DNA of 13,323 nucleotides from a virus. Lineage: Duplodnaviria > Heunggongvirae > Uroviricota > Caudoviricetes. A program made the position numbers and the translations under genes. Under the pieces are notes generated by a model. The model saw nothing but the letters and a program-made list of their open reading frames with translations, was not told where the DNA came from and made no database searches. Location: positions 1 through 13,323 of IMG/VR virus record IMGVR_UViG_2565956709_000005; one strand, written 5' to 3'. Below, one piece after another: positions 1 through 13,323 of the stretch (position 1 is the first letter of the stretch; each line of letters opens with the position of its first letter).

Positions 1-1131
1 TCAAATGACCAGTTTTTTCCATTCCTTACCGCGTGCGTCGTTGTAAATATCGGTCATTTTTTGATTCGAATGGCCTAGCAAAATTTTGGTATCAACCCCC
101 TGCTCTCTGAACAATCGCTCTGATAAAGATCTCTGCTCATGGAAAGAGGGTGGGGTGCCATTAGCACGCCAGTTGTAATCCACAGAATCCCGGGCTTTTT
201 TAAATGCAACGGTTAATGTTGCTGGCTTAACCATCCCGCCGCGCTTAGCTGTCCCTTTCGCGTGATGGTGGTGCAATAGCCACGGACTAAGAACGCAATC
301 GCGGCAGGATGACACTACATCATCCAGGGTGAGATTTAATTTATCGCAACGCAGAGCCAGAGGGATGGCAATCCGGGTTCCTGTTTTTTGCTGTTCGACA
401 TGAAGATAACCATCCCGGATATCCGAAAATTGCATTTTGCAAATATCTGAAAGGCGCTGGCCTGTCATCAGTGCCAGCAGCATACCGCGCTGTAAAAAGT
501 AACCATCCTTTTCCGCTGCGTTATAAATCATCATCCACTCATCAAAAGTCAGTCGCTGTCTTGATATCCGCACCTGCGGTTTTTTTGCCGATTCTGCAGG
601 GTTAAAGCCTGGCGGGACATCGCCCGTTTGCTGAGCTTCCCGGAAAACATCGATCAGTACTTTCCTGAAAATTTGTCCCATTCTGTTATGTCCTCTGGCC
701 TTGTACTCTTCCAGTACTGATACCACATCTTTTACGGTTATGGCATCTAACGGTCTGGTGCCAAAACGTTCATCAAATACCCTGAGAGGGGCCGCTTTCT
801 GTTTCAGCGTGTTGAGTTTGATCTCGCCGTTTTCATATCTTTCCTGTTGAATTTTTCTGTAATTATTCAGAAAAATGGTAACGGTTGATGAACCGCCGGT
901 ATCACTAATAATTTTCTCCTGCAGACTGAGCATTTGTTCCATTTGCTGCCGGGCAAGACGGCTGTTCGCTTCTGCTGCAATAGTTTCTGCCAGTTTCTGG
1001 TCAATACTGCCGAGACCGTGATTTTTGCCTGTTATGGGATGCCTGTAACGCCAGTAAACTTTGTTATTTCTTTTGTCAAAATACGGAGATAATCCCGGAA
1101 CATCGGTTTTATATTTTCGCGGGCGCGCCAT
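1..1131 (-). CDS. int: Phage tyrosine integrase (lambda Int-like site-specific recombinase), 376 aa, complete; stop codon at positions 1-3
   Basis: Full-length ORF in track. C-terminus ...LLGHSNQKMTDIYNDARGKEWKKLVI resembles the lambda Int catalytic tail (LLGH...Y motif) as I recall it. Overlaps an excisionase-like gene by 23 nt. Family assignment from established knowledge, not a search. Confidence 0.88.
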   Translation of the reverse strand: MARPRKYKTDVPGLSPYFDKRNNKVYWRYRHPITGKNHGLGSIDQKLAETIAAEANSRLARQQMEQMLSLQEKIISDTGGSSTVTIFLNNYRKIQQERYENGEIKLNTLKQKAAPLRVFDERFGTRPLDAITVKDVVSVLEEYKARGHNRMGQIFRKVLIDVFREAQQTGDVPPGFNPAESAKKPQVRISRQRLTFDEWMMIYNAAEKDGYFLQRGMLLALMTGQRLSDICKMQFSDIRDGYLHVEQQKTGTRIAIPLALRCDKLNLTLDDVVSSCRDCVLSPWLLHHHHAKGTAKRGGMVKPATLTVAFKKARDSVDYNWRANGTPPSFHEQRSLSERLFREQGVDTKILLGHSNQKMTDIYNDARGKEWKKLVI

Positions 1132-1357
1132 CTTCCAGTATCCTCTTCAAAGCAGGGTGATCTGTGGCGATCACCTCCGGCTTGTTTACCATTCCGACAA
1201 AGCGAGCTTGCGGATCCACTCGCCAGCGTCTCCCAACTTTTTTGGGGAGAGGAAATATCATTCCGGCTTTAGCGTATTTACTTAACGTACTCGGAGTAGG
1301 GACCGGTTCACTGAATTCCTCTTTTGCCCACTCAGTGAGCAGAATAAGTCTTGCCAT
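1109..1357 (-). CDS. xis: Excisionase / small DNA-binding directionality factor (Xis-like), 82 aa
   Basis: Small basic ORF immediately upstream of and overlapping int on the same strand; motif ...IFPLPKKVGRRWRV... resembles the winged-helix Xis region. Synteny plus motif; not search-verified. Confidence 0.7.
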   Translation of the reverse strand: MARLILLTEWAKEEFSEPVPTPSTLSKYAKAGMIFPLPKKVGRRWRVDPQARFVGMVNKPEVIATDHPALKRILEDGAPAKI

Positions 1358-1421
1358 GAGCGTCGTTCGCTAATCATGGTCGCCGCCACTATAGCTGGTG
1401 GGCAACGACCGGGGTTGAACA

Positions 1422-3893
1422 TTAAAAATCAGCCTGATTCGGGATCAGTTTTTGCCAGATAACTGAAACGTATTTTGCCTGGTAACGGGCGTCATCAAGT
1501 GCATTATGGCGCTCACCTTCGAATGGAATAGCCGTTCTGGCATCGAAGTCTATGGCTTTCCCCAGCTCAACGATTGTGCGTACATCGCGATCGTTGTAGT
1601 AACGCCATGGGCAGGGGATCCCCTGCCGTTCGTATGAACGGCGCAAAATCGTGTTGTCGAAGTTGGCTCCATTTCCCCAGACCTGAACAAAAAATTCGCC
1701 GGAGTTTTCGTCGATAAATTCCCGCAATTGCAGCAGTGCATCATCTAACGGGATTTCATCGGTCAGAATGGCAGATTGCGCCTCCCGTGATTGCTTAAGC
1801 CACCATTTAATGGTGCCACGATCAATGACTCCGCCAGCAGTATCCATATCGATGGTCTTACTAAATTCCGGCCCCATATCTCCGGTTTGCGGATCGAAAA
1901 ATATTGCACCTATTGAGATAAGCGGGGCATCGGGATTTTTTCCCATGGTTTCAAGGTTGATCATCATGTGGTGCCACATTCTGCTGGTGGATGTGATAAC
2001 GTGATGACCGTTCATCGCAATTAAGGGATCTGCCGTCTCGCCAGTTTCACTATCGCTGGCGTGATCCTGAGCGCTACCAGCATTCTCCTTGTGTGGATGT
2101 TCAGCGCCTTCCATTTCCTTCGGATCATTTTCCTGAACTTCAACCTGATTCTCTTCATCGAATGTTTCCTGGTATGTTGCGTCGCCCATTACCGCGCCAC
2201 AATCAGGGCAGTTGCCACCACCGCTTTGACCGCAGGCGGTGCAGACTTTTTCCGGTTCCTGTTGCGCTACTGGCTCAGGTTGTTTCGTTTCTGGCTCGTT
2301 TTGTAACGCATTTGGGCTGTTTTGTTCCGCTTTCTGGCCGTTCTGTTCCGTTTCTTGTTGGTTCTGATTCACTGAATCGCGGGTTTCAATCCCCTTCACC
2401 CATTTCGGATCATTCGGGTCGCTAATCCCTGCAACAAATTCACCACGTGATACAGCAAGCAACTTATTGGCGTCAGGCTGGCTGATATTGGCTGCCTGCA
2501 TAATTTTGTTTACTTCGTCAGCGGTAACTTTTACCGGCTCTGGTTGTGCGATCGTGTCAGATGCACCAGTATTTTGTTGTGAACCTGAGTATGTACTGTT
2601 TTTGCGGGCGAAATATTCTTCTTTCGTGATTTCAGTAGCCCCGGCAGCCAGCGCCTTATCCAGACCAGAAAGTTTGTTTGCGCGACCGTATTTTTCGCCA
2701 TCCTTGTCGGTGAAGAGGAAGTAGAACGGCCCTTCACGCTCTACAGATGGTTCGACTTCCACTTTGCATTCGGTTTTTTCGTTGTCCGGAATTGCCGTTT
2801 CCACTGCATCAGTTTCTGGTACTGGCGACGAGAGAGTATCAGTTGCGCTCTGATTTCTTCCTTCATCTTCAAACACGCCCTTTGTAGTCAGGTATTCAGT
2901 AATGTATTTGTTCAGTGCCACAGGGTCTTTGTGAATGTCGATCGGACGTTCACGGACAAGGCCAAAAATAGTCTGGCGGTCGTAGCGAAGGGCATCAGGC
3001 TGTTTGCGCATTGATGCCGAGATACGCTTCCAGTCTTCGCGGTCGTTGTCGATAACTTCATTTTTTGCCCAGCGATGGATGCTGCCGTCAATGTTTCCGG
3101 CATCCACATCACCAGGCCAGAGAGCGTAGGCCAGTTCGTCATCCAGTGTTTTCCATGTCTGCTTGTATTCGCGATGAATGGCAGCAATGACCGGGCTGAT
3201 TTTTCCTGTTGAATTTTCAGTGTGCTGTTGATTGGTTCTGGCGCGGGCGAGATCAACAACAGACGTGTATTTTCCGGTTTCCTTGCGTTCACCTTCGCGA
3301 CGTTTTTTCCAGATGCGCATCTCTGCCTGAATTTCGGGCCATTTGGCACCAGGCTTACATTTATGCTTAACCCACCCGATGGCATGCAGCTTAAGCTCCG
3401 GATACATGGCGTTAACTTCTGGCATTTTCATCAACGCTTCAACGATATGTCCGTCGAATGTTGCCATGTCTTCCTGCAACAATTCCTGTGCGCTAATAAC
3501 CATATCAACGGTGATGTTTTCACATGTGTCGAACTTAACCATGACAGCGTTCTGTACTTCAGGGGACAGCTTGTCAAAATTGACGTTCATCGGATCGGAT
3601 TCTGGTTCGACCGGAATAAAGGAAGCGGATTCCTCATCCCAGCGGTTTTCCTGCATATATTCAGCATCCCAGGAATCGAGGGCAGGGCGGGGTATACCGG
3701 GTTTATCCTCGCAGACAAGAAATTTATAAGCGCAGTCCTGAGCAGCCGGATAATGTTCCAGGAATTGCCAGTGAAATTTTGCGCGGGCGCGACGTTCATC
3801 ACCGGCTTCAATGGCAGTGGCTACAGCGACGGCACCTTCTTCCTTTATTGCCTGTTCGTCCGGAATGGCGGCGCAAATAAAGACTTTACTCAT
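1422..3893 (-). CDS. Large multidomain exonuclease, RecE / exodeoxyribonuclease VIII-like by position, 823 aa, with C-terminal DnaQ-like (DEDDh-type) 3'-5' exonuclease domain
   Basis: Long ORF with ATG at 3893 and a GAGG about 12 nt upstream. C-terminal ~180 aa carries DnaQ-family-like motifs (...VWGNGANFDNTIL... and ...HNALDDARYQ...). Middle has a Q/E/P-rich low-complexity linker and a CxxC-x9-CxxC zinc-ribbon-like motif (CTACGQSGGGNCPDCG). Segment LLAVSRGEFVAGISDPNDPKWVKG matches my unverified recollection of E. coli RecE. Sits where lambdoid phages carry exo/recE, directly upstream of xis-int. Confidence 0.6.
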   Translation of the reverse strand: MSKVFICAAIPDEQAIKEEGAVAVATAIEAGDERRARAKFHWQFLEHYPAAQDCAYKFLVCEDKPGIPRPALDSWDAEYMQENRWDEESASFIPVEPESDPMNVNFDKLSPEVQNAVMVKFDTCENITVDMVISAQELLQEDMATFDGHIVEALMKMPEVNAMYPELKLHAIGWVKHKCKPGAKWPEIQAEMRIWKKRREGERKETGKYTSVVDLARARTNQQHTENSTGKISPVIAAIHREYKQTWKTLDDELAYALWPGDVDAGNIDGSIHRWAKNEVIDNDREDWKRISASMRKQPDALRYDRQTIFGLVRERPIDIHKDPVALNKYITEYLTTKGVFEDEGRNQSATDTLSSPVPETDAVETAIPDNEKTECKVEVEPSVEREGPFYFLFTDKDGEKYGRANKLSGLDKALAAGATEITKEEYFARKNSTYSGSQQNTGASDTIAQPEPVKVTADEVNKIMQAANISQPDANKLLAVSRGEFVAGISDPNDPKWVKGIETRDSVNQNQQETEQNGQKAEQNSPNALQNEPETKQPEPVAQQEPEKVCTACGQSGGGNCPDCGAVMGDATYQETFDEENQVEVQENDPKEMEGAEHPHKENAGSAQDHASDSETGETADPLIAMNGHHVITSTSRMWHHMMINLETMGKNPDAPLISIGAIFFDPQTGDMGPEFSKTIDMDTAGGVIDRGTIKWWLKQSREAQSAILTDEIPLDDALLQLREFIDENSGEFFVQVWGNGANFDNTILRRSYERQGIPCPWRYYNDRDVRTIVELGKAIDFDARTAIPFEGERHNALDDARYQAKYVSVIWQKLIPNQADF

Positions 3894-3988
3894 TTTGTTT
3901 TAACCTCATTACAGATTTCAGGGTGAACGAATCCCTGCCATTGCTGGCATTTTTAATCCGTTGGTATGGCGTTAATATGGCTGGCGGG

Positions 3989-4177
3989 TTATCCAGCCGG
4001 TATTTCGTTATTCAGGTTCAGCGATACTTTTTTTAACGGGAGGCATTCACCGGGGATTTTTTGTTCGTCCCTTACCTGAATGCAGGATGACTTACTGTCA
4101 TAAATTCCGGTAATCACATTTTGTGGCTCACCCGTTATAAGAAAAACGGTCATCACCAGTGCAAATGCTGAAGTCAC
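3989..4177 (-). CDS. Small protein with N-terminal hydrophobic segment (predicted single transmembrane helix or signal anchor), 62 aa, unknown function
   Basis: ORF in track. N-terminus MTSAFALVMTVFLITG is hydrophobic. Start overlaps the stop of the upstream ORF in an ATGA arrangement (4174-4177). Lies in a visibly AT-rich segment. Confidence 0.5.
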   Translation of the reverse strand: MTSAFALVMTVFLITGEPQNVITGIYDSKSSCIQVRDEQKIPGECLPLKKVSLNLNNEIPAG

Positions 4178-4362
4178 TGCTGTTCTCCGATAATACCAAG
4201 TTCAAGAAGGGCAATTCTGGAAAGTATGGAATTATCATTGAGAAGATAAGGTTCATATTTTCTCATCTTAATGGCATCTTCCGTAAACTCCCGGTTACTG
4301 AGCAGAACACCAATATCAAAACAACCTTCAGACGTATTAACGTTTGGTAATAACGTTTCCAT
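4174..4362 (-). CDS. Small hypothetical protein, 62 aa from ATG 4362 (ORF track gives a 97-aa version from 4467)
   Basis: The internal ATG at 4362 is preceded by GAGGA with a 7-nt spacer; I saw no comparable ribosome-binding site at 4467. Translationally coupled to the downstream 62-aa membrane protein ORF. Confidence 0.45.
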   Translation of the reverse strand: METLLPNVNTSEGCFDIGVLLSNREFTEDAIKMRKYEPYLLNDNSILSRIALLELGIIGEQQ

Positions 4363-4927
4363 TATCGCGTCCTCAACAATGAATTTTGTGATGCGGTGCC
4401 TGGTGCCTCCAGGTGACGTTAACCAGTTAACAATTAACGCCGGATACAGAGAATCCACCCATAACACTGTTTTTGGTTTTAACTGTTCCGCGTGCGCTCA
4501 GCCGCATTCACCACATCACAAAATTCACTTTAAAAAGGGCGGCAGAGCAGTCACGGAGTAAAACTGATACCGCCAAACGTCACCAGAAAATTGATAACAG
4601 AGGGCGTTGCAGCGGAGTTGTCACTTAAGCGTATGGTCAACCTGACAACCCGGTGTCCTCAACGGAGGAAGGAATAACCCCGCCATACTTACCGCCGCGC
4701 CATTTCGCGGAGTGCCACAACCGGAAGCGCACGGTCGAACTAAATTTAACGACACCGTACAGAGAGACCAATTTCGCCGTGCGCTTTCGCTTTATGCCCT
4801 GACTTTTCAGGGACATATCCTTTCAGTAAACTGTCAGTGCCGGATGTTCACCCGTGTCCGGCGCACGCACTCCACCTGACCCGTGGAGAACTCCTTAATT
4901 ACCAACCTTAGCTTCGTTGGTTAGCTA

Positions 4928-5146
4928 TTAACGCGGGTATGTAACCATTCTGGCAATGCTTAATGCCGCTGCTTTTTCCAGCCTGGTGATATCCTGCTCC
5001 AGAGCGGACAGATTTTCAGCCTGCTTAGTCCTGGCTTCATTGGCCCATTTCAGATCCTGCGCTGCATTAATTTTCTGGCGCATCCACTCATAAAGTTCAT
5101 CATCGGTATAGTCTGGCGCGATGATGACGGGTTCTCGTTTCTGCAT
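4928..5146 (-). CDS. Small early-left protein, 72 aa, predicted helical; unknown function (positional analogue of kil/cIII-type small early genes)
   Basis: ORF in track; same strand and operon as neighbours. No recognisable motif. Confidence 0.5.
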   Translation of the reverse strand: MQKREPVIIAPDYTDDELYEWMRQKINAAQDLKWANEARTKQAENLSALEQDITRLEKAAALSIARMVTYPR

Positions 5147-5175
5147 ACTGATTCCTCGCGGTGCTGCTTCGCTTA

Positions 5176-5304
5176 TCAGCCGTTAGATTTTGCCGAGCTG
5201 GAAAGCGCCTGTTTAAACTCACTGAAGCTGAGAGCTTCTTCGCCTTCGGCAAGGCCTTCGAAGTATTCTTCGTAAGCCTTTTCCATGATTGTGTCGAAAT
5301 CCAT
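5176..5304 (-). CDS. Small acidic protein, 42 aa from ATG 5304 (56 aa if ATG 5346 is used); absent from the ORF track (below 60 aa)
   Basis: Hand-translated on the minus strand: MDFDTIMEKAYEEYFEGLAEGEEALSFSEFKQALSSSAKSNG. The ATG sits 2 nt after the stop of the upstream 78-aa ORF, with GGTGAG just upstream. Confidence 0.35.
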   Translation of the reverse strand: MDFDTIMEKAYEEYFEGLAEGEEALSFSEFKQALSSSAKSNG

Positions 5305-5305
5305 A

Positions 5306-5542
5306 TCACTCACCTGAGTTTCTTTCCAGCCAGCGACGGGCACCATTTTCGGTTTTAAACGTTTTGCTTTTGGTATACGTCATTGCGGTGAACGTGCCGT
5401 CCTGGTTGGGGAACACGCCACATACCAGAGATTCGCTGTTGCCAAGATCGATAGTATCCATGCTGACCTCATTTCCCCTTAACGCCGGGGGAGCGGAACA
5501 AAAACCTGCTGCATAGTTATTAAAGTTGAACCCTGCCGTCAT
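5306..5542 (-). CDS. First gene of the leftward early operon, 78 aa, unknown function
   Basis: ORF in track. GAGG lies 8 nt upstream of the ATG on the minus strand. About 95 nt downstream of the predicted P_L -10 element. Confidence 0.55.
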   Translation of the reverse strand: MTAGFNFNNYAAGFCSAPPALRGNEVSMDTIDLGNSESLVCGVFPNQDGTFTAMTYTKSKTFKTENGARRWLERNSGE

Positions 5543-5642
5543 GTTCTTACGCCTCGGGCTGGCTACTTAACCCCTGACCACTGCCTGGTAACTCGAGGTA
5601 TTGCCCTGTATTGTGTGGGACGGGATGGGTTGGTATGGGAAA

Positions 5643-5686
5643 ACTATAGGAAATGCCTAATTACTTGTCAATAGGCTATGCCTAAT
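5643..5686 (-). promoter_or_regulatory. Predicted leftward early promoter P_L with two operator sites (O_L)
   Basis: On the minus strand: -35 TTGACA (5671..5666), 17-bp spacer, -10 TATAGT (5648..5643). Two 17-bp dyad sites of the form ATTAGGC-N3-GCCTAAT at 5670-5686 and 5645-5661, centres 25 bp apart. Shares a 23-bp exact inverted repeat with the O_R region. Confidence 0.5.
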
Positions 5687-5779
5687 AATTTGGGCGCGAC
5701 CTAATAGGTGATGGTTTGTGGGAGAGGTAGTAGGAGTTAACTAACGGGAACTAGGAATTTCCCGTCGGACCATATAAGT

Positions 5780-6256
5780 TTAAGTTCCTGTCTTGGTGAT
5801 GTTCTGGCTTTTCCGTTTTGATTCTTGATTTTTCAGATAGTTAGCTACCTTCATTTCCATTGCGGCAATGTAGGCGCGAACGTCATGATCAACCCAACTA
5901 GGCTCCGTAGCATTTCCAGATAAGAGGAAAGCCACAATTGCTCTTTTTTCATCAGAGGCGGCTTGATAAAGGCTGTTTATGTCTAAAAGTTCACTTTTTG
6001 TATCTGAAGTGGATGGGGTTGGTATGGGGTATTCGTTAAGCCCCCAATGCTCTGGACCAACCACATCAGAAAAGAAACGCCATAGTTCTGGAAGTTTGTC
6101 TTTACTTATCGAACCTTTCTTAATCCAGTCATGGATTGATGGTGGTTGGACTTTGAAATGACGTGCGATTTCCGCCTTTGATTTGACGGCTCCTGATGCA
6201 ATTTTTTTGTTAATGGCCTGCTCAATCGCTCGGCCTAAGTCTTTACCACTAAGCAT
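5780..6256 (-). CDS. racR: Prophage repressor with HTH DNA-binding domain, RacR-like, 158 aa
   Basis: ORF in track, divergent from a cro/ydaS-like gene. HTH-like segment SKAEIARHFKVQPPSIHDWIKKG. Resemblance to E. coli Rac RacR (also 158 aa) is from memory, not a search. Confidence 0.75.
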   Translation of the reverse strand: MLSGKDLGRAIEQAINKKIASGAVKSKAEIARHFKVQPPSIHDWIKKGSISKDKLPELWRFFSDVVGPEHWGLNEYPIPTPSTSDTKSELLDINSLYQAASDEKRAIVAFLLSGNATEPSWVDHDVRAYIAAMEMKVANYLKNQESKRKSQNITKTGT

Positions 6257-6283
6257 TGCTTAATAGTCTCCTATGCGCATCGC

Positions 6284-6353
6284 GTTAGGCAATCCCTACT
6301 CTCGATGTATTAGGCATAGCCTATTGACAATTGCATTAGGCTAAGCCTAATAT
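6284..6353 (+). promoter_or_regulatory. Predicted rightward early promoter P_R with operator sites (O_R) between the repressor and cro-like genes
   Basis: -35 TTGACA (6324-6329), 18-bp spacer, -10 TAATAT (6348-6353). Perfect 17-bp palindrome ATTAGGCTAAGCCTAAT at 6335-6351, near-palindrome ATTAGGCATAGCCTATT at 6309-6325, and a degenerate third site at 6284-6300. Site centres are 25-26 bp apart. Confidence 0.55.
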
Positions 6354-6380
6354 TGTTGCGTGTTTTTTGGAGTTCATTCG

Positions 6381-6704
6381 ATGAAAAAAGATAACTATTC
6401 ATTCAAACGAGCTTGTGCTGTTGTCGGTGGGCAATCAGCAATGGCTAGGCTTTTAGGTGTATCTCCTCCAAGCGTAAATCAATGGATCAAAGGTGTACGT
6501 CAGTTGCCTGCTGAGAGATGTCCTGCGATTGAACGAGCAACAAAAGGTGGTGTCCTGTGTGAAGAACTTCGTCCTGATGTTGATTGGACATACTTACGAC
6601 GCTCGTCATGTTATTCGCAGAATATGTCGATGAAGCAACCAAATGACGAAAACGATCATACCCGAAGCATCAAGAGGCAAATGATTCATGAAAATCAAAC
6701 ATGA
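6381..6704 (+). CDS. ydaS: Cro-like HTH regulator, YdaS-like, 107 aa from ATG 6381
   Basis: GGAG lies 9 nt upstream of ATG 6381 (track starts at GTG 6360). HTH segment GGQSAMARLLGVSPPSVNQWIKG. Start matches my recollection of Rac YdaS (MKK.NYSFK.ACAVVGGQSAMARLLGV...), unverified. Confidence 0.7.
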   Translation: MKKDNYSFKRACAVVGGQSAMARLLGVSPPSVNQWIKGVRQLPAERCPAIERATKGGVLCEELRPDVDWTYLRRSSCYSQNMSMKQPNDENDHTRSIKRQMIHENQT

Positions 6705-7113
6705 GCACATCCGCATGGCGATGAATGCTTGGGCATACCCTGATGGTGAGAAAGTTCCTGCAGCTGAAATAGCCCGGACTTATTTCGAACTGGGGATGAC
6801 GTTCCCTGAACTGTACGACGACAGCCATCCGGAAGCCCTGGCCCGTAATACACAGAAAATTTTCCGTTGGCTGGATAAAGACACCCCTGATGCTGTTGAA
6901 AAAATTCAGGCTCTGTTACCGGCGATCGAAAAGGCAATGCCGCCTCTGCTGGTGGCCCGTATGCGCAGTCACAGCTCTGAGTATTACCGGGAGATTGTCG
7001 AACGGCGGGATCGGCTGGTGAAGGATGTCGACGATTTTGTTGCGTCAGCGGTTGTTTTGTATGACCAGATGAATCGCGGCGGCCCGGCAGGGAATGCTGT
7101 GGTGATGCACTAA
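6688..7113 (+). CDS. ydaT: YdaT-like protein (toxic partner of YdaS in Rac, kept silent by RacR), 141 aa
   Basis: ORF in track; overlaps ydaS-like stop by 17 nt; begins MKIKHEHI as I recall for YdaT. Mostly synteny-based. Confidence 0.6.
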   Translation: MKIKHEHIRMAMNAWAYPDGEKVPAAEIARTYFELGMTFPELYDDSHPEALARNTQKIFRWLDKDTPDAVEKIQALLPAIEKAMPPLLVARMRSHSSEYYREIVERRDRLVKDVDDFVASAVVLYDQMNRGGPAGNAVVMH

Positions 7114-7135
7114 AAGCACGGTGTTCGGGGGTTTT

Positions 7136-8098
7136 ATGAGCAGCAAGCTTCATGGTCTTGTCTGGGAAGGGTGCGCCTTCACCGGCATGATCTTATCCAG
7201 GGTGGCGGTTATGGCCCGTCTTGCAGACTACAGCAATGACGAGGGCGTGTCATGGCCTGCCATTGAAACTATCCGGCGTCAGATCGGTGCAAGAAGTGAA
7301 TCCACAGTGAAATCGGCTATTGCAGAACTGGCGAAAGAGGGCTGGCTGACGAAGGAAGAGCGTAAGGTCGGTGGGCGTAATGTAAGCAATATCTATCGAC
7401 TTAATGTGGAAAAACTCGAAGCAGCTGCGGCGGCGGCGCGTGAGTCATATAAACCGAAAAGAAAAATTAGCCCGGCAAAAAATGACCCGTTAACAGTTGA
7501 CCCGTCAAATATTGACCCCTCAACGGTTGACCCGTCAAATTTTGATGGATCAACTGTTGATAAAAAACTGCCGATTAGGGGGGCGATGATTGACCCCGAT
7601 CCGTCAGTATTAAAACCTGATCCGTCAGATAAAAGATCTTCTTGTCCGGACGCTTCGCAACCGGACCCGCAGACGGCTGAACAGGATTTTTTAACCCGAC
7701 ACCCTGACGCGGTTGTGTTCAGTGCGAAAAAACGCCAGTGGGGAAGTCAGGAAGATTTGGTGTGCGCACAGTGGATCTGGGGACGAATCGTGAGTCTTTA
7801 CGAGCAGGCGGCCAGCTATGATGGCGAGATCACTAGACCGAAAGAACCCAACTGGACAGCATGGGCCAATGACGTTCGCACAATGCGGATGCTGGATGGC
7901 AGAACTCACAGACAAATTTGTGAAATGTTTGGGCGTCTCCAGCGGGATTCGTTCTGGGTAAAAAACATCATGAGTCCGGCAAAACTCCGGGAAAAATGGG
8001 ATGAACTGGTTATCCGCCTGGGGCGTTCGCCTGCGCAGCGTTGCGTGAATCACATTTCTGAACCGGACACTGAAATTCCGCCGGGCTTCAGGGGGTAA
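7136..8098 (+). CDS. Phage replication initiation protein (N-terminal winged-helix HTH, O-like), 320 aa from ATG 7136, with ori iterons inside the coding sequence
   Basis: N-terminal HTH-like region (...WPAIETIRRQIGARSESTVKSAIAELAKEGWL...). Central DP(S/L)N/TVD peptide repeats are encoded by the DNA iterons. Position after the cro/cII-like genes matches lambda O. ATG 7136 is preceded by a G-rich stretch; the track's GTG 7121 is the alternative start. Confidence 0.7.
   Translation: MSSKLHGLVWEGCAFTGMILSRVAVMARLADYSNDEGVSWPAIETIRRQIGARSESTVKSAIAELAKEGWLTKEERKVGGRNVSNIYRLNVEKLEAAAAAARESYKPKRKISPAKNDPLTVDPSNIDPSTVDPSNFDGSTVDKKLPIRGAMIDPDPSVLKPDPSDKRSSCPDASQPDPQTAEQDFLTRHPDAVVFSAKKRQWGSQEDLVCAQWIWGRIVSLYEQAASYDGEITRPKEPNWTAWANDVRTMRMLDGRTHRQICEMFGRLQRDSFWVKNIMSPAKLREKWDELVIRLGRSPAQRCVNHISEPDTEIPPGFRG
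7482..7553. repeat. Candidate replication origin: five 12-bp dyad iterons (TTGACCCGTCAA-like) at 15-bp phasing
   Basis: Copies at 7482 (ATGACCCGTTAA), 7497 (TTGACCCGTCAA), 7512 (TTGACCCCTCAA), 7527 (TTGACCCGTCAA) and 7542 (TTGATGGATCAA), each TTGAC-NN-GTCAA-like. Followed by an A/T-rich stretch (7555-7570) and more TGACCCC / CCGTCAG repeats to about 7628. Confidence 0.6.
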
Positions 8099-8138
8099 GT
8101 GTTAATTTCTGGTCATGAGGTAATTTTCAGGAGGGCTT

Positions 8139-8561
8139 GTGGCAAAAGTTTTTACACAAGAAGAGCGGGAAAAAATTAAAGGGCAGGTTGTTGAACTCGT
8201 ACGCCAGAGTGGGCGCGAGACGTTACGACAACTGGAAACTAAAACTGGGGCAACAAGATATCTGATGAGCGTTCTGGCCAGAGAGCTGGTTGCCAGCGGC
8301 GATGTATACAACTCCGGCTACGGGTTATTCCCCTCTGAACAGGCGCGTAAGGACTGGCAAAACGCCCGCAAAAAACTCTCGAGGGCAAAGGTGAAGAAAC
8401 CTGCTGTGGTTGATCCGGACCTTATCTGGTCATCACCTGACGGAGAAATACGTCGCTACGACAGTCGCCTAAACATAATCTGTCGCGAGTGCCGGAAGAG
8501 TGAAGCTATGCAGCGTGTACTGGCTTTCTATCAGGGTAATTTTCAGGAGGCGGTACTGTGA
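8139..8561 (+). CDS. Hypothetical protein, 140 aa, GTG start
   Basis: AGGAGG lies 4 nt upstream of GTG 8139. The 16-nt ribosome-binding-site module GGTAATTTTCAGGAGG occurs just upstream and again at the gene's 3' end. Confidence 0.55.
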   Translation: MAKVFTQEEREKIKGQVVELVRQSGRETLRQLETKTGATRYLMSVLARELVASGDVYNSGYGLFPSEQARKDWQNARKKLSRAKVKKPAVVDPDLIWSSPDGEIRRYDSRLNIICRECRKSEAMQRVLAFYQGNFQEAVL

Positions 8562-8618
8562 GTGAAATTAGCTATCAGGCTTCAATTACCGCTGGCATTC
8601 GCATCAAAGGAGAGGAGC

Positions 8619-8975
8619 ATGGAAATAAAACCAGAGGATGAGTTAAGCAATATCGTTTTATTTCCGGTAAAAGAGGATGACCCTCGTAATCAGGTTAATT
8701 TTCTTTATGAGCCATCGGAAAGACCATATTGTCATCACGCCTCTGTCCGGGTTGACGAAAAAGAGCGTCAGGTCCGCTGTAAAATCTGCGGTGCAGTTGT
8801 GGAGCCATTTGACTGGATGCTCTCTGTGGCGAAAAGAGAAACCAGACTGGCAGATGATGTAAGGCTCTTGCGTCAAGAGGAGCGGGAAAGGCGAAAAAAT
8901 ATAGAAAAGCTAATTCAGATTGAGCGTAACGCGAAAGCGCGGATACGCAGGGCGACAAAATCCAGAACTGAATAA
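8619..8975 (+). CDS. Hypothetical zinc-ribbon-like protein, 118 aa from ATG 8619 (track version starts at GTG 8562)
   Basis: Strong ribosome-binding site AAGGAGAGGAG directly upstream of ATG 8619. Cys/His cluster YCHHASV...CKICG. Basic coiled-coil-like C-terminus. Confidence 0.55.
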   Translation: MEIKPEDELSNIVLFPVKEDDPRNQVNFLYEPSERPYCHHASVRVDEKERQVRCKICGAVVEPFDWMLSVAKRETRLADDVRLLRQEERERRKNIEKLIQIERNAKARIRRATKSRTE

Positions 8976-9068
8976 TTAAATTTAGCTCTGTTAAAAATTT
9001 AATCCTTAACCGGAGGGATTTCTGCACCCTCAGAACATCAGGAGGCCGCCCGAAAGGGCGGTAGTTAA

Positions 9069-9251
9069 ATGCGAAAGTTTAAAATAATTATTGAAACGGG
9101 AATAGCCGGTGGAGATTTCGAGGATGAATTCGAAGTGGATGATGATGCGACGCCTGATGAAATACATGACGAAGCAAAAGATATTTTCTTTAACTACTGC
9201 AATTACTCATATCACGAAATAAAAGACGAAGAGGAAGAACAAAATGGCTGA
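9069..9251 (+). CDS. Very acidic small protein, 60 aa (20 Asp/Glu against 5 Lys/Arg), unknown function
   Basis: ORF in track. AGGAGG (9040-9045), then a GC hairpin (9046-9061), then ATG 9069. Composition counted by hand. Confidence 0.5.
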   Translation: MRKFKIIIETGIAGGDFEDEFEVDDDATPDEIHDEAKDIFFNYCNYSYHEIKDEEEEQNG

Positions 9252-9420
9252 TTTTGGTTCAACTAAATACAACGTCAGTTTTGAAGAATGGCATGAACTG
9301 TTAATGGACTATGCAGAGTTACGTGGTGGCAGTGCTGCTGATGCTGAAGCATGGCGTGATGATTATGAAGCAGGAAAAACTCCGGTCGAAGCATATTGTG
9401 ATGAGTGGGGCGATGAATGA
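9244..9420 (+). CDS. Acidic small protein, 58 aa (16 Asp/Glu against 4 Lys/Arg); absent from the ORF track
   Basis: Hand-translated: MADFGSTKYNVSFEEWHELLMDYAELRGGSAADAEAWRDDYEAGKTPVEAYCDEWGDE. Start overlaps the upstream stop (ATGGCTGA) and its stop overlaps the next ATG (ATGA). Confidence 0.45.
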   Translation: MADFGSTKYNVSFEEWHELLMDYAELRGGSAADAEAWRDDYEAGKTPVEAYCDEWGDE

Positions 9421-9733
9421 GCGAGGTTAATTATCAGGAAGGGCATGAAACGGCGGGGCAAGCAAAAACAGTGGCATGGCGATATCGCTACGTGAAAAAA
9501 AAGGCGTTACGGACTTTCAGGGGAAGTAGTGGTCTGGTGACTGGAAATATGTACCGAAAAAAGAGGATTGTAACGACAGGCCGAACTATGAAATTCAGGC
9601 CTTATTCACTGCCCCGCCAGTCCCGGTTACATCAGAAGAACTGGTTAAAGCTGTGCACTTTTATGAACAACTAAAACGCGAAAATCCACCAGCATCCGGA
9701 AACCTGATTACAGATTCCCAGATAAGGCAATGA
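9417..9733 (+). pseudogene. Disrupted or recoded gene: translationally coupled start at 9417, A8 run with A_AAA_AAG heptamer, protein-like coding in the -1 frame downstream, in-frame TAG at 9527-9529
   Basis: Frame 0 from 9417 is open to 9674 but its C-terminal half is compositionally odd (K/R-rich). The -1 frame from 9530 to 9733 reads protein-like (WSGDWKYVPKKEDCNDRPNYEIQALFTAPPVPVTSEELVKAVHFYEQLKRENPP...) but has no start codon and follows a TAG. Slippery heptamer at 9497-9503. Confidence 0.3.
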
Positions 9734-9903
9734 GCTACCTGGCGCAGAACGGGCTGATAAGTATGGGGAATGTTTTACGATGAATATTTAGACTAAAGAG
9801 TTTGTAACGCTATGTAAGTGATTTTTTCTGGTTTAGATATTTATATATCCGGCCAAATTGAGGTGTGTTTAAATGTAATTGCACATTGATTGTAGGAGGA
9901 ATA

Positions 9904-10083
9904 ATGAAAAACGCATTGCAGTTTTTGTTTGTTGCGTTCTGGTTGTTCGTATCATGTATGCCCATCATCTTCACAGCAAGGTATATGGAAAAAGTTGATG
10001 TTTTGATATTAATATTTGGATATATAAATGCCCTTTTTTTAGGGGTGTTCATGGCGGTCATGTGCATTGAATACTGGCGGTAA
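9904..10083 (+). CDS. Small hydrophobic protein, 59 aa, two predicted transmembrane helices; accessory (moron-like) gene in an AT-rich island
   Basis: AGGAGG (9894-9899) with a 4-nt spacer to ATG 9904 (track lists a longer version from 9865). Sequence MKNALQFLFVAFWLFVSCMPIIFTARYMEKVDVLILIFGYINALFLGVFMAVMCIEYWR. Surrounding 9780-10080 is visibly AT-rich. Confidence 0.55.
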   Translation: MKNALQFLFVAFWLFVSCMPIIFTARYMEKVDVLILIFGYINALFLGVFMAVMCIEYWR

Positions 10084-10138
10084 ATACAGCGAACGCCATT
10101 GGTTTAGTTGGATATTTACTGTGCCGGACAAAAACGGT

Positions 10139-10166
10139 TTGCGGGGAAATCTTAGTTAAGTAGAAT
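10139..10166 (+). promoter_or_regulatory. Predicted promoter of the hok/mok mRNA
   Basis: -35 TTGCGG (10139-10144), 16-bp spacer, -10 TAGAAT (10161-10166). The predicted start near 10173 coincides with a 5' element (10171-10184) complementary to the mRNA 3' region (10547-10561). Confidence 0.45.
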
Positions 10167-10221
10167 GACTGCGGGTGCTTGAGGCTATCTGTCTCAGGCA
10201 TGAACACCAAAAGGCAGATAG

Positions 10222-10295
10222 AGAAAAGCCCCAGTTAACATTACGCGTCCTGCAAGACGCTTAACATTAATCTGAGGCCATATCTATGCTCTACA
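10222..10295 (-). ncRNA. sok: Predicted Sok-like antisense RNA covering the mok ribosome-binding site and start codon
   Basis: Inferred from hok-locus architecture. Minus-strand terminator-like structure (hairpin GCGUC...GACGC nested in a GGCCUCAG/CUGGGGCU stem, then UUUUCUCU) ends near 10222. Weak candidate promoter on the minus strand (-35 TTGCCT 10329..10324, -10 TAACCT 10306..10301). Boundaries approximate. Confidence 0.35.
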
Positions 10296-10498
10296 CACGT
10301 AGGTTAGCCTCTTACGTGCCGAAAGGCAAGGAGAAGCAGGCTATGAAGCAGCAAAAGGCGATGCTAATCGCCCTGATCGTCATCTGTTTAACCGTCATAG
10401 TGACGGCACTGGTAACGAGGAAAGACCTCTGCGAGGTACGAATCCGAACCGGCCAGACGGAGGTCGCTGTCTTCACAGCTTACGAACCTGAGGAGTAA
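10286..10498 (+). CDS. mok: Mok-like reading frame (in-frame N-terminal extension of Hok), 70 aa
   Basis: ORF in track. Starts 19 codons upstream of hok in the same frame, an arrangement I recall for MokC/HokC. GAGG lies 8 nt upstream of ATG 10286. Confidence 0.6.
   Translation: MLYTRRLASYVPKGKEKQAMKQQKAMLIALIVICLTVIVTALVTRKDLCEVRIRTGQTEVAVFTAYEPEE
10343..10498 (+). CDS. hok: Hok/Gef-family type I toxin (small membrane-depolarising peptide), 51 aa, HokD/RelF-like
   Basis: Sequence MKQQKAMLIALIVICLTVIVTALVTRKDLCEVRIRTGQTEVAVFTAYEPEE has the Hok/Gef signature (N-terminal transmembrane helix, ...LVTRKDLCEV.IRTG..EVA.F.AYE...). AAGGAG lies 10 nt upstream. Confidence 0.88.
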   Translation: MKQQKAMLIALIVICLTVIVTALVTRKDLCEVRIRTGQTEVAVFTAYEPEE

Positions 10499-10565
10499 GA
10501 GACCAGGCGGGGGAGAATCCCTCGCCACCTCTGATGTGTCAGGCATCCTCAACGCACCCGCACTT

Positions 10566-10592
10566 AACCCGCTTCGGCGGGTTTTGTTTTTT
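10566..10592 (+). terminator. Rho-independent terminator of the hok mRNA
   Basis: AACCCGC-TTCG-GCGGGTT stem-loop followed by TTTTGTTTTTT. Confidence 0.8.
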
Positions 10593-10664
10593 CCTGGCAT
10601 TCTGGTTTACAATTCGCACGTCAGCCTGAACACCTGACACCTGCTGCGCCAGCAGAGAAAACAG

Positions 10665-10937
10665 ATGGCGCACAAAACCAAATTTCACAATTCTGATACC
10701 GACCTTGCCATCCGGCATGAGCGGCGTTCACACGCATTTAAAACCGACTGGTACCAACACCCACCATGTACTGAAGAACAGGCCGAATGGCTGATTCATA
10801 ACTACCGCAGACGTGGATATGAGTTTAGGAAAGCCCTCACCCTCGATTATCGTCACTGGATAATCTACGTCAGACTCCCTTATTCCGAACGCCCACCGCG
10901 TCCGTCCCGCACATTCCAGCAACGGATCTGGAGGTAA
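10665..10937 (+). CDS. Hypothetical protein, 90 aa, translationally coupled to the downstream HNH-motif protein
   Basis: ORF in track. Its 3' end contains the GGAGG that serves the next gene's GTG start. The antisense ORF here is S/T/R/P-rich and less plausible. Confidence 0.5.
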   Translation: MAHKTKFHNSDTDLAIRHERRSHAFKTDWYQHPPCTEEQAEWLIHNYRRRGYEFRKALTLDYRHWIIYVRLPYSERPPRPSRTFQQRIWR

Positions 10938-10938
10938 C

Positions 10939-11997
10939 GTGCGGGTATTACTTCGATCTGTTCCGGTACCGGAACTTGGGCTGGTGGTCCTTAAGCCTGG
11001 TCGTGAATCCATGCAGGTATTCCGCAGCGGTCGTGTACTGGTGGAGCCGGAACCGAAAAGCATGCGCGGTCTGCCGTCCGGAGTCGTTCCTGCCGTTCGC
11101 CAGCCATTGGCGGAGGATAAATCACTACTGCCATTTTTCAGCGATGAGCGGGTGATTCGTGCTGCTGGCGGTGCTGGTGCGCTGTCTGACTGGCTGTTAC
11201 GCCACGTTAAATCCTGCCAGTGGCCTCATGGTGACTATCATCACAGTGAAATCGTCATACATCGTTACGGTACCGGCGCGATGGTGTTGTGCTGGCACTG
11301 CGACAACCAGCTGCGTGACCAGACCTCCGAATCACTCGGGCAACTTGCTCATCAAAACCTGTCAGCATGGATGATTGACGTCATACGCCATGCAGTGAAT
11401 GGCACGCAGGAGCGGGAATTATCGCTGGCTGAATTGTGCTGCTGGGCTTCTGTAAATGATGTAGTGGATGCCATGACCGAAAATATGGCGCGTCGAATCC
11501 TGAAGCTTCCGGGTGAAAAAATCCGCTCAGTATACCGCGAGAGCGACATCGTACCGGGAGAGCAGACCGCCATCAGCATACTGAAGCAGCGCACAAAAAA
11601 TATTGCGCCGTTGCCTCACGCCCACCAGCAACAGAATCCACCACAGGAAAAGACGGTGGTCAGCATTGCCGTTGATCCGGAGTCACCGGCTCAGTATCTC
11701 CAGCGCCAGAAACCACAACGGGAAGAGATGCCTGTATACACGCGCTGGGTAAAAACGCAGAAATGCATGACGTGTGGCAATCAGGCAGATGATCCGCATC
11801 ACATCATTGGTCATGGACTGGGAGGGATGGGAACAAAGGCTGATGATTTGTTTGTTATTCCGCTGTGCCGTAAATGCCATAGCGAACTACACGCCGGGGT
11901 AAAAGATTTTGAAGAAAAACACGGCAGCCAGCTGTTGTTGCTGATTCGTTTTTTAATGCACGCGAGAAATTCGGGTGTCCTGAAGTGGAAAGCATGA
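10939..11997 (+). CDS. Nin-region protein with C-terminal HNH-type zinc-finger nuclease motif (DUF968-like), 352 aa
   Basis: C-terminus CMTCGNQADDPHHIIGHGLGGMG...LCRKCHSELH has a CxxC...HH...CxxCH...H layout. GGAGG lies 6 nt upstream of GTG 10939. Sits directly upstream of rusA. DUF968 label is from memory. Confidence 0.65.
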   Translation: MRVLLRSVPVPELGLVVLKPGRESMQVFRSGRVLVEPEPKSMRGLPSGVVPAVRQPLAEDKSLLPFFSDERVIRAAGGAGALSDWLLRHVKSCQWPHGDYHHSEIVIHRYGTGAMVLCWHCDNQLRDQTSESLGQLAHQNLSAWMIDVIRHAVNGTQERELSLAELCCWASVNDVVDAMTENMARRILKLPGEKIRSVYRESDIVPGEQTAISILKQRTKNIAPLPHAHQQQNPPQEKTVVSIAVDPESPAQYLQRQKPQREEMPVYTRWVKTQKCMTCGNQADDPHHIIGHGLGGMGTKADDLFVIPLCRKCHSELHAGVKDFEEKHGSQLLLLIRFLMHARNSGVLKWKA

Positions 11998-12363
11998 ATG
12001 ACTGAACGCATAGAATTTGTTTTGCCTTACCCGCCAACGGTGAACACTTACTGGCGACGTCGTGGCAGCACATATTTTGTATCAAAAGCCGGTGAGCGTT
12101 ATCGCCGTGATGTGGCGCTTATTGTTCGCCAGCAGCGGCTGAAATTAAACCTGTCCGGAAGGCTGGCGATAAAGATTATTGCAGAGCCACCGGATAAACG
12201 TCGTCGTGACCTGGACAATATCCTGAAAGCACCACTGGATGCGCTGACGCATGCCGGACTTCTCATAGACGACGAGCAGTTTGATGAAATCAATATTGTG
12301 CGCGGTCAGCGCGTTCCTGGGGGGCGGCTGGGCGTGAAGATTTACAAAATTGAGAGTGAGTGA
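11998..12363 (+). CDS. rusA: RusA Holliday-junction resolvase, 121 aa
   Basis: Motifs ...LPYPPTVNTYWRR... and ...PDKRRRDLDNILKAPLDAL... match the RusA family as I know it. Start overlaps the upstream stop (TGAATG). Confidence 0.88.
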   Translation: MTERIEFVLPYPPTVNTYWRRRGSTYFVSKAGERYRRDVALIVRQQRLKLNLSGRLAIKIIAEPPDKRRRDLDNILKAPLDALTHAGLLIDDEQFDEINIVRGQRVPGGRLGVKIYKIESE

Positions 12364-12917
12364 TCGTAAATATGATATATCCGGAAATTACAGGCAAAAG
12401 CGGCGAGCATTTACGTCTAAAAACGCTGGAAGCCGTCTGGATCCAGGGGAAATTACGGATGTGGGGGCGTTGGTCGTACATAGGTGGTGGCAAACCAGGA
12501 AATATGTTCAATCAGTTGCTGGCATCCAAAACACTTACAAAAACTGCGATCAATGAAGCTCTGCGCAGAATAAAAAAATCAGGGATTGATAAAACTGAGC
12601 TGGAAGCGTTTTTGCGTGAGATGATCAACAGCAAGCAAAAGAGCGGGCTGGCTTATTGTACTGATGCCGAGGCGTTATGTATCGATCGGGTAATTAGTAA
12701 AGTGTTGGCAGAGCATCCGGGATTGATTTGTATCCTCCGACAAAGATATGAAGGGCTGGGAATGAGCAAGCTGAAAATGGCAGAACAGTTAAAAAAGAAT
12801 CACCCTGACTGGAGCCTGAAAACTTGTAGAAATCGCATTGATGTTTGGTTGGCGATGGCTGAAACCATGCTTTTCCTTCCAATGTGCGTGGCACTTCGGT
12901 GCTTTTCTGATAACTGA
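12360..12917 (+). CDS. Putative late-gene antiterminator (Q-like) by position, 185 aa; start may be ATG 12372 rather than GTG 12360
   Basis: ORF in track. Follows rusA as Q does in lambdoid phages and is followed by a promoter-like sequence. No Q-specific motif recognised, so the function is positional inference. Confidence 0.4.
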   Translation: MIVNMIYPEITGKSGEHLRLKTLEAVWIQGKLRMWGRWSYIGGGKPGNMFNQLLASKTLTKTAINEALRRIKKSGIDKTELEAFLREMINSKQKSGLAYCTDAEALCIDRVISKVLAEHPGLICILRQRYEGLGMSKLKMAEQLKKNHPDWSLKTCRNRIDVWLAMAETMLFLPMCVALRCFSDN

Positions 12918-12992
12918 TGATAGAAGTGCATCAGCTATCAATCTTGTTGACGTTCATCAAGGTCTGGACAATACTTACGTTAAGTTCCAACA

Positions 12993-13323
12993 GGTAATGG
13001 TGCCAACTTACTGATTTAGTGTATGATGGTGTTTTTGAGGTGCTCCCGTGGCTTCCATCTCCATCAGTTGTCCCTCCTGCTCAGCTACTGAAGGCGTGGT
13101 GCGTAACGGTAAAAGTACTGCCGGACATCAGCGCTATCTCTGCTCTCACTGCCGTAAAACATGGCAACTGCAGTTCACTTACACCGCTTCTCAACCCGGT
13201 ACACACCAGAAAATCATTGATATGGCCATGAATGGTGTTGGATGCCGGGCAACCGCCCGCATTATGGGCGTTGGCCTCAACACGATTTTACGTCACTTAA
13301 AAAACTCAGGCCGCAGTCGGTAA
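12993..13323 (+). mobile_element. IS1 insertion sequence, left end and insA, truncated by the window edge
   Basis: Terminal sequence GGTAATGGTGCCAACTTACTGAT at 12993 resembles the IS1 inverted repeat as recalled, followed by a complete insA ORF and the IS1 A6C frameshift motif (13299-13305). Confidence 0.88.
13048..13323 (+). CDS. insA: IS1 InsA (transposition regulator; N-terminal part of the InsAB' frameshift transposase), 91 aa
   Basis: Sequence [43 protein letters not shown]... is recognisable as IS1 InsA. Slippery A AAA AAC lies near the 3' end. Confidence 0.9.

Follow-up and report, generated by a model that had tools for sequence, protein, structure and literature searches.

Does the AT-rich segment just upstream of hok/sok, a classic toxin-antitoxin locus, in a lambdoid prophage encode a protein, and if it does, on which strand and with what possible role? 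The DNA analysed here, hereafter the window, is the 13,323-nucleotide stretch at positions 1 to 13,323 of the IMG/VR virus record IMGVR_UViG_2565956709_000005, which is a Rac/Qin-type lambdoid prophage of Escherichia coli. Upstream of its hok gene lies an open reading frame (ORF) of 59 codons, which we call ORF59. An initial annotation, made from the letters of the sequence, had proposed here a small two-helix membrane protein in an AT-rich island. Comparative evidence makes it very probable that ORF59 is a real membrane-protein gene, and the fuller explanation, in which it truly encodes an inner-membrane protein of 59 residues that annotation routinely overlooks, is in our estimate likely.

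Coding evidence for ORF59 and its paralog

ORF59 extends from an ATG at 9904 to 10083 on the + strand, stop included, and its 59-residue product is MKNALQFLFVAFWLFVSCMPIIFTARYMEKVDVLILIFGYINALFLGVFMAVMCIEYWR. A Shine-Dalgarno (SD) element, AGGAGG, stands 4 nucleotides (nt) upstream of the ATG, and the hydrophobic protein with a strong ribosome-binding site that had been proposed is therefore present. Its start at 9780 was misplaced: that position belongs to the stop and overlapping ATGA of a decayed upstream gene, and 9784-9903 is a leader rather than coding sequence. In the sample drawn by upstream DNA pattern (see below), position 9897 of the SD element is A in 54 alleles and G in 56, so that AGGAGG and AGGGGG occur at about 50:50. 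When 9784-10125 was shuffled 5000 times with dinucleotides preserved and searched on either strand, an ATG ORF of at least 59 codons arose in 13% of shuffles, and one preceded by an SD element in 0.2% (p 0.002).

The composition of the frame has the periodicity of a hydrophobic coding sequence. T occupies codon position 2 in 32 of the 59 codons (chi-square p 0.003), and the GC content of third codon positions (GC3), 51%, exceeds the 30% of positions 1 and 2 (p 0.02). The GC content is 30% in the leader (9784-9903), 37% in ORF59 and 43% at 10084-10125, compared with 48% over the whole window. The low value inside ORF59 is due to the hydrophobic residues specified at codon positions 1 and 2 and not to a foreign base composition. 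The AT-rich island is real as a matter of composition (30-37% GC), with the low GC limited to the leader and to codon positions 1 and 2, and it does not argue for a foreign origin.

An exhaustive search with HMMER over 1.84 billion representatives recovered a second 59-residue protein (P0037), hereafter the paralog, which aligns over residues 1-59 to residues 1-59 of ORF59 with 41% identity (E 3.7e-9). No gaps are needed, and 23 columns are invariant when five sequences are included and 19 when nine are. By the Nei-Gojobori method the two genes have pN 0.33 and pS 0.71, a ratio of nonsynonymous to synonymous substitution (dN/dS) of about 0.21 (Fisher p 8e-5), and the nucleotides are identical at 34, 43 and 28 of 59 first, second and third codon positions, respectively, the order 2 > 1 > 3. 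The marks of purifying selection, a kept frame and length with dN/dS below 1, are found between the two clades and not within the young clade of ORF59. The initial annotation had staked its case on the + strand ORF being conserved, and a same-length paralog under such constraint bears it out. In the paralog, an in-frame TAA precedes the ATG by 18 nt, and therefore the conserved start is the ATG at 9904 rather than a GTG at 9865. The leader could not be aligned with that of the paralog in a MAFFT alignment.

These comparisons bear directly on the view that the region is a non-coding T-rich or AT-rich spacer whose hydrophobicity is a by-product of composition, or that the ORF on the opposite strand is the real gene. 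An ATG ORF of sufficient length does arise in 13% of shuffles, PGAP makes no call in the RefSeq matches listed, some annotators call the antisense ORF, and variation within the clade shows no excess of synonymous changes. Against this stand the same-length paralog with its dN/dS of 0.21 and ordered codon-position conservation, the state of the other five frames of the segment, which contain 2-10 stops or are broken in the paralog, and the strong SD element. For the antisense ORF in particular there is no SD element, and its frame is closed in the paralog. We regard this view in either form as highly improbable.

The antisense ORF (9810-10067) is a shadow ORF, not a gene, because it has no SD element, its wobble bases fall on the third codon positions of ORF59, and the equivalent frame of the paralog contains two stops, with no ORF of at least 40 residues on that strand. 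The initial annotation had named conservation of this antisense ORF as a refuting result, which the two stops contradict. Two phage records (ON470612.1, 23105-23356, and ON470619.1) label it 'hornerin', an evident annotation error, and a third, PhiR42_1, annotates a hypothetical protein on the antisense strand.

Distribution, annotation and recent evolution

Of 5426 complete E. coli genomes, 1568 (~29%) carry ORF59 at an identity of at least 95%, nearly always as a single chromosomal copy, and 1045 (a further ~19%), Nissle 1917 and APEC O1 among them, carry the paralog. ORF59 is retained over at least 80% of its length in 1555 of its 1568 carriers, and it is co-located with the hok upstream region in 1556 genomes. 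We also drew a sample of 115 IMG/VR copies with a 47-nt pattern of upstream DNA, which is blind to ORF59 itself; the frame is intact in 113 of them (98%).

Standard annotation overlooks the gene. RefSeq annotation by PGAP places no feature over ORF59 among the 60 matches listed; a wider 601-nt query returned a few 'hypothetical protein' labels, and in one genome (L001) the label was traced to a neighbouring pseudogene. GenBank and UniRef hold the protein as hypothetical, 'putative membrane protein' or 'uncharacterized membrane protein', with identical or near-identical entries in UniRef (A0A1Q9L2W4_ECOLX; for the paralog, A0A2S5RMW9_ECOLX) and a 'putative membrane protein' in E. coli UMNF18. 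Neither peptide is mentioned in the literature full texts searched. Small membrane proteins are systematically missed by annotation, and adding ORF59 would correct existing annotations.

A word-indexed protein search returned only near-identical E. coli and Shigella sequences, and tblastn on phage records gave no third clade. One apparent homolog of 53% identity (L086) was rejected as an error-ridden assembly with 1-nt insertions and deletions, many at homopolymers; alignment to all other copies opens 22 gaps in 576 nt, which suggests an uncorrected long-read assembly and not real divergence. It belongs with L084 and L085 to a set of three E. coli/Shigella chromosomes (L084-L086; CP182557.1, CP182556.1 and CP178302.1) that are separate GTDB species representatives. 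On present comparisons ORF59 and its paralog are best regarded as a new family of small membrane proteins from prophages, with two clades, both confined to Escherichia and Shigella.

Within the clade of ORF59 the pattern of substitution differs from that between clades. Among 266 clade-1 sequences there are 12 variable sites in ORF59, 11 of them nonsynonymous (V16A, M28I, V31I, I37M, Y40H, A43V, L44I, V48G, F49S, M53T and Y57C) and one synonymous, compared with nonsynonymous to synonymous counts at the same loci of 15:10 for hok and 37:48 for a rem-like gene (Fisher p 0.005, ORF59 versus its neighbours). Diversity across ORF59 and hok is far below that of the flanking genes, as expected of a recently spread cassette.

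The excess of replacements is the chief argument for a different history, in which ORF59 was functional in ancestral phages, has since come under neutral decay in prophages that are cryptic or mosaic, and retains an open frame for no other reason than the very young age of its copies (at least 95-97% identical). The upstream neighbour of ORF59 is already a pseudogene, the paralog lies in a scar of fragments about 2 kb long, and protein databases contain frameshift variants at a run of six T residues, all of which fit such decay. The common replacements V16A, V31I, I37M and M53T are nevertheless conservative within the predicted helices, and the M37 and H40 variants are the residues of the paralog and therefore tolerated states. 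The high proportion of intact copies also speaks against decay, and no premature stop was found in ORF59 among the 266 sequences, unlike the neighbouring DUF7167 and 58-residue genes at the same loci, where stop variants are present. Diversifying selection, moreover, would produce the same excess of nonsynonymous changes. We consider neutral decay to be an unlikely account of ORF59.

Two further observations concern the variants just mentioned. The run of T residues (10031-10036, codons 43-45) is frameshifted in many database proteins, e.g. P0019, P0021, P0024 and P0025, which end in ...FFRGVHGGHVH; the frameshift is present in none of the 115 pattern-sampled IMG/VR copies, and these variants may be either sequencing errors or real phase-type variation. 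In the DUF7167 and 58-residue genes (9069-9420 in related loci), the apparent stops (K37*, W37*) occur together with many linked changes on a common haplotype of about 67 sequences; instead of point nonsense mutations, this may represent an allele that has diverged or been frameshifted.

Several results weigh against our preferred reading of ORF59 as a functional inner-membrane protein gene. The selection signal comes from one pairwise comparison only, and within the clade the ratio of 11:1 fits neutrality (P 0.28) and rejects an omega of 0.21 (P 0.001), in a conservation test that has low power with only 13 DNA alleles; ORF59 may thus be drifting at present, under relaxed or diversifying selection. 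Only two clades were recovered, both from Escherichia and Shigella; 5.8 billion protein clusters yielded no intermediate, nor did GTDB genomes, IMG/VR or metagenomes. The spacing of 4 nt between the SD element and the ATG is short, and strict and relaxed scans found no sigma-70-like promoter for ORF59 on either strand. Finally, the protein has no similarity to any characterised protein, and the functional part of the reading is therefore inferred only.

Predicted membrane protein and its possible roles

Hydropathy gives two hydrophobic stretches in the ORF59 protein, at approximately residues 4-24 and 33-55, around a charged loop, ARYMEKVD. AlphaFold2, run on the nine-sequence alignment, predicts helices at 2-26 and 32-58 with a mean predicted local distance difference test score (pLDDT) of 72, and both approaches thereby agree with the two-helix membrane protein originally proposed. 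The most likely topology would be an N-in/C-in helical hairpin in which a first transmembrane helix (~4-24) and a second (~33-55) are joined by a periplasmic ARYMEKVD loop, an orientation that follows from the positive-inside rule, with positive residues at both ends (K2, or R2-K3 in the paralog, and R59) and a neutral to acidic loop between them. Residues W13, S17, C18, P20, I21, I22, T24, L36, F38, G39, N42, A43, L44, E56, W58 and R59 are invariant in the paralog alignment, and G47 is invariant save for rare single variants. Conserved motifs are S17-C18-x-P20-I-I-x-T24, F38-G39-(H/Y)40-x-N42-A43-L44 and the C-terminal E56-x-W-R, and the small-residue face G39-x3-A43-x3-G47 suggests helix packing or oligomerisation.

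The first of these motifs raises the possibility that ORF59 is a lipoprotein precursor, with residues 1-17 a type II signal peptide and Cys18 lipidated. The mature form would then have 42 residues, with an N-terminal lipid and one C-terminal transmembrane helix, like the small lipoproteins by which phages block receptors or DNA entry. The lipobox pattern PROSITE PS51257, used in the form {DERK}(6)-[LIVMFWSTAG](2)-[LIVMFYSTAGCQ]-[AGS]-C with the cysteine at position 15-35 and K or R in the first 7 residues, is matched at residues 8-18 in both clades, with the cysteine at 18 and K or R within the first 7. S17 and C18 are invariant across clades of 41% identity, and the most conserved block starts at the cysteine. 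This pattern gives false positives in transmembrane segments. The residues after the cysteine (MPIIFT in one clade, VPIILT in the other) are hydrophobic, unlike typical mature lipoprotein N-termini, the AlphaFold2 helix continues unbroken through 2-26, and there is no Pfam lipid-attachment-site match. We consider lipidation of ORF59 doubtful in view of these features.

Searches of family databases leave the two-helix protein without relatives of known function. ORF59 has no Pfam match at E <= 1 and none in NCBIfam; its best PHROGs match is phrog_2720 (E 0.93), with no holin family among the hits; PADLOC returned 0 families for both clades, and a PDB sequence profile search 0 matches. Foldseek against BFVD found generic helical hairpins only (best E 0.79).

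Hok/Gef peptides (PF01848) are likewise small, hydrophobic inner-membrane peptides of prophages, and a hok gene is linked to ORF59 in both clades; Hok has, however, one transmembrane helix with a periplasmic tail and is controlled by mok/sok RNA, whereas ORF59 has two predicted helices, no PF01848 match, and no antisense RNA or fold-back control that we could detect. ORF59 is accordingly not a Hok/Gef member, and by its PADLOC result it is no described defence protein either. Class II holins and pinholins, such as S21 of phage 21, have about 70 residues and two transmembrane domains in an N-in/C-in arrangement. ORF59 resembles them in size, predicted hairpin and small-residue helix face, but it lies upstream of rusA and Q beside hok and not in a lysis cassette before the endolysin, and it has neither a dual-start motif nor a PHROG holin match; neither position nor profile would make it a holin. 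Small phage membrane proteins that mediate exclusion include T4 Imm, P22 SieA and HK97 gp15, and phi80/N15 Cor and T5 Llp are exclusion lipoproteins. Like ORF59 with its lipobox-like motif, these are short, phage-encoded, membrane-embedded or lipid-anchored and dispensable for virions; ORF59 differs in having no PHROG or PADLOC similarity to them and no promoter of its own found for expression in the lysogen.

Our best guess, offered tentatively, is that ORF59 might have a conflict function at the membrane, such as superinfection exclusion or a similar envelope effect; a role of this kind seems likelier than one essential to the phage. ORF59 would be a defined candidate for prophage accessory functions (exclusion, envelope modulation) beside hok/sok.

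No promoter or terminator was found within 9734-10135, although consensus scans can miss weak promoters, and there is no terminator between ORF59 and hok. We infer that ORF59 may be transcribed with the rightward early operon, reading through into hok, because the scans gave neither a promoter of its own nor a terminator ahead of the hok promoter-like site at 10138-10166. A moron, i.e. autonomous cargo, would have its own promoter and terminator and a distinct composition, and these are not seen in ORF59.

ORF59 could itself be a small membrane toxin, of type I toxin-antitoxin or holin-like character, or a partner or modulator of Hok in a three-part locus. It is small and very hydrophobic with a small-residue helix face, hok is linked to it in both clades and together with it in 1556 genomes, and no terminator intervenes. 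A perfect 12-nt inverted repeat pairs the leader (9839-9850) with codons 39-42 (10018-10029) in the minimum-free-energy fold, and its variable pair, 9847/10021, is A-U, G.U or G-C and never A.C in 114 contigs. We nonetheless rejected this pairing as functional, since a simple phylogeny explains the haplotypes equally well and the paralog lacks the repeat; the fold of 9784-10135 has a z-score of only -1.7, which is not significant. There is furthermore no - strand promoter-like site in 10000-10170 and no Rfam match in 9700-10170, although undescribed small RNAs may escape such a search. The paralog stays intact where hok is deleted, thousands of genomes have hok without ORF59, no Hok/Gef or holin family is matched, and ORF59 lies upstream of Q, outside the lysis cassette. 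A toxin or Hok partner thus appears quite improbable.

Similarly small is the chance we would give to ORF59 being a third component of hok/sok that, as a hairpin or lipid-anchored membrane protein, gates, potentiates or protects against Hok, or a new superinfection-exclusion determinant that travels with hok, although either would explain why the adjacency has been kept across lineages of 41% identity. If ORF59 does interact with Hok, a protein layer would be added to a system thought to be controlled by RNA only; failing that, ORF59 joins the uncharacterised small proteins known from prophages. Its value lies in the correction of annotations and in a testable link to hok, and not in a surprising mechanism.

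The hok/sok locus and its cargo slot

The gene order of the window is exonuclease, dicB, racR, ydaS/ydaT-like genes, replication genes, DUF977, DUF7167 and a 58-residue gene, followed by a decayed phrog_660 gene, ORF59, hok/sok, a rem-like gene, DUF968, rusA and Q (Table 1). A frameshift near 9500 and two internal deletions disrupt the decayed gene, leaving only the C-terminal ...PDKAMSYLAQNGLISMGNVLR* in frame; its PGAP pseudogene call stops at 9733, and phrog_660 homology continues to the stop at 9781-9783, which overlaps the ATGA at 9780-9783. Profile matches to PF01848 and RF01794 downstream of ORF59 confirm that hok/sok adjoins it, and this order recurs in both clades.

Table 1 Features of the ORF59-hok region of the window and content of the equivalent slot in related prophages
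Feature	Position	Strand	Basis or content
Decayed upstream gene, phrog_660 family, 171 residues when intact	9417..9783	+	PGAP pseudogene; intact copies in FORC_029 and STEC1589
AT-rich untranslated leader, from the stop of the upstream gene to ORF59	9784..9903	+	30% GC
Antisense shadow ORF, 85 codons	9810..10067	-	no SD element, no family matches, closed in paralog
Shine-Dalgarno element AGGAGG, 4 nt 5' of ATG	9894..9899	+	sequence; ORF plus SD element in 0.2% of shuffles
ORF59 coding sequence, predicted small membrane protein	9904..10083	+	ORF, gap-free paralog alignment, codon periodicity
ORF59 3' flank	10084..10125	+	first ~35 nt partly conserved with paralog (MAFFT alignment)
hok promoter-like site TTTGCG/TTGCGG ... 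TAGAAT	10138..10166	+	relaxed scan
hok mRNA 5' region / sok antisense region	10173..10348	+	Rfam RF01794, 117 bits, E 1e-27
mok/hok frame	10286..10498	+	PF01848, E 3e-23, 81.6 bits
hokD coding sequence	10343..10498	+	PGAP, WP_000813254.1
Intrinsic terminator of hok transcript	10566..10583	+	first terminator-like site 3' of ORF59
FORC_029 slot			intact 171-residue upstream gene, 75 nt for a 27-residue hydrophobic peptide (ATGA overlap), hok
STEC1589 slot			parDE
PhiR42_1 slot			ORF59 present; mobile element interrupts hok region, then flxA, ydfV, relBE
K-12			only hokD coding sequence and downstream in common with window; without ORF59
LF82 Tritos slot			FRG-domain gene 5' of hok, helix-turn-helix-domain and hypothetical pair 3'; without ORF59
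Match H121 slot			Doc-family toxin gene beside hok

In B2 strains, e.g. Nissle 1917 and APEC O1, a prophage remnant at the ttcA (Rac) site forms the scar that contains the paralog, in the order integrase fragment, DUF1627 fragment, DUF977 fragment, paralog, hok 3' remnant, sitD fragment and uspF. Every annotated neighbour of the paralog is a fragment, and because the copies of this clade are at least 98.8% identical over 600 nt, an intact paralog amid fragments says little on selection by itself. The hok remnant begins 55 nt past the paralog stop, and the order from DUF977 fragment through paralog to hok remnant mirrors that of the window. A hok gene is therefore downstream of both copies, intact in the window and a 3' stump beside the paralog, and the order is ancestral to both lineages; ORF59 followed by hok/sok is on this comparison an old two-part unit. 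The scar adjoins the cytolethal distending toxin type IV (cdt-IV) genes cdtABC in APEC O1 and in the IMG/VR contig 2684622582_000011, and that of Nissle 1917 is without cdt.

The ORF59-hok unit occupies a variable slot between the replication or nin-like genes and the block of rem-like, DUF968, rusA and Q genes. Related prophages carry different content at this position (Table 1), which supports the accessory setting originally proposed, and the slot between the phrog_660-type gene and the rem-like and DUF968 genes is a hot spot for toxin-antitoxin and defence cargo. In FDAARGOS_1279 the gene ahead of the unit is a different one, with similarity limited to its 3' end. Homology to the hok cassettes of other phages begins at 10126-10130, just past the 3' flank of ORF59, and these phages have only the window from 10126-10154 onward, the hok cassette, in common with it. 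An imperfect direct repeat of 25 nt (72%) brackets ORF59 at 9833-9857 and 10108-10132, its right copy spanning the boundary of the hok cassette.

In the LF82 prophage Tritos, hokD is very highly transcribed, and the helix-turn-helix-domain and hypothetical pair downstream of it is described as ImmA/IrrE-type (PMC9928086). Tritos was rejected as a source of expression data for ORF59, which it lacks; its homology with the window begins at 10154.

In FORC_029 (L087), the part of the slot equivalent to 9780-10125 of the window contains, at 3376-3459, an unannotated peptide of 27 residues, MTWPEAFITVGIAMAVALVVYSICRWG, whose ATG overlaps the upstream stop (ATGA) and which has a weak PHROG match (phrog_4612, E 0.009). 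In the window, nothing but the ATGA and 'MNI*' remains.

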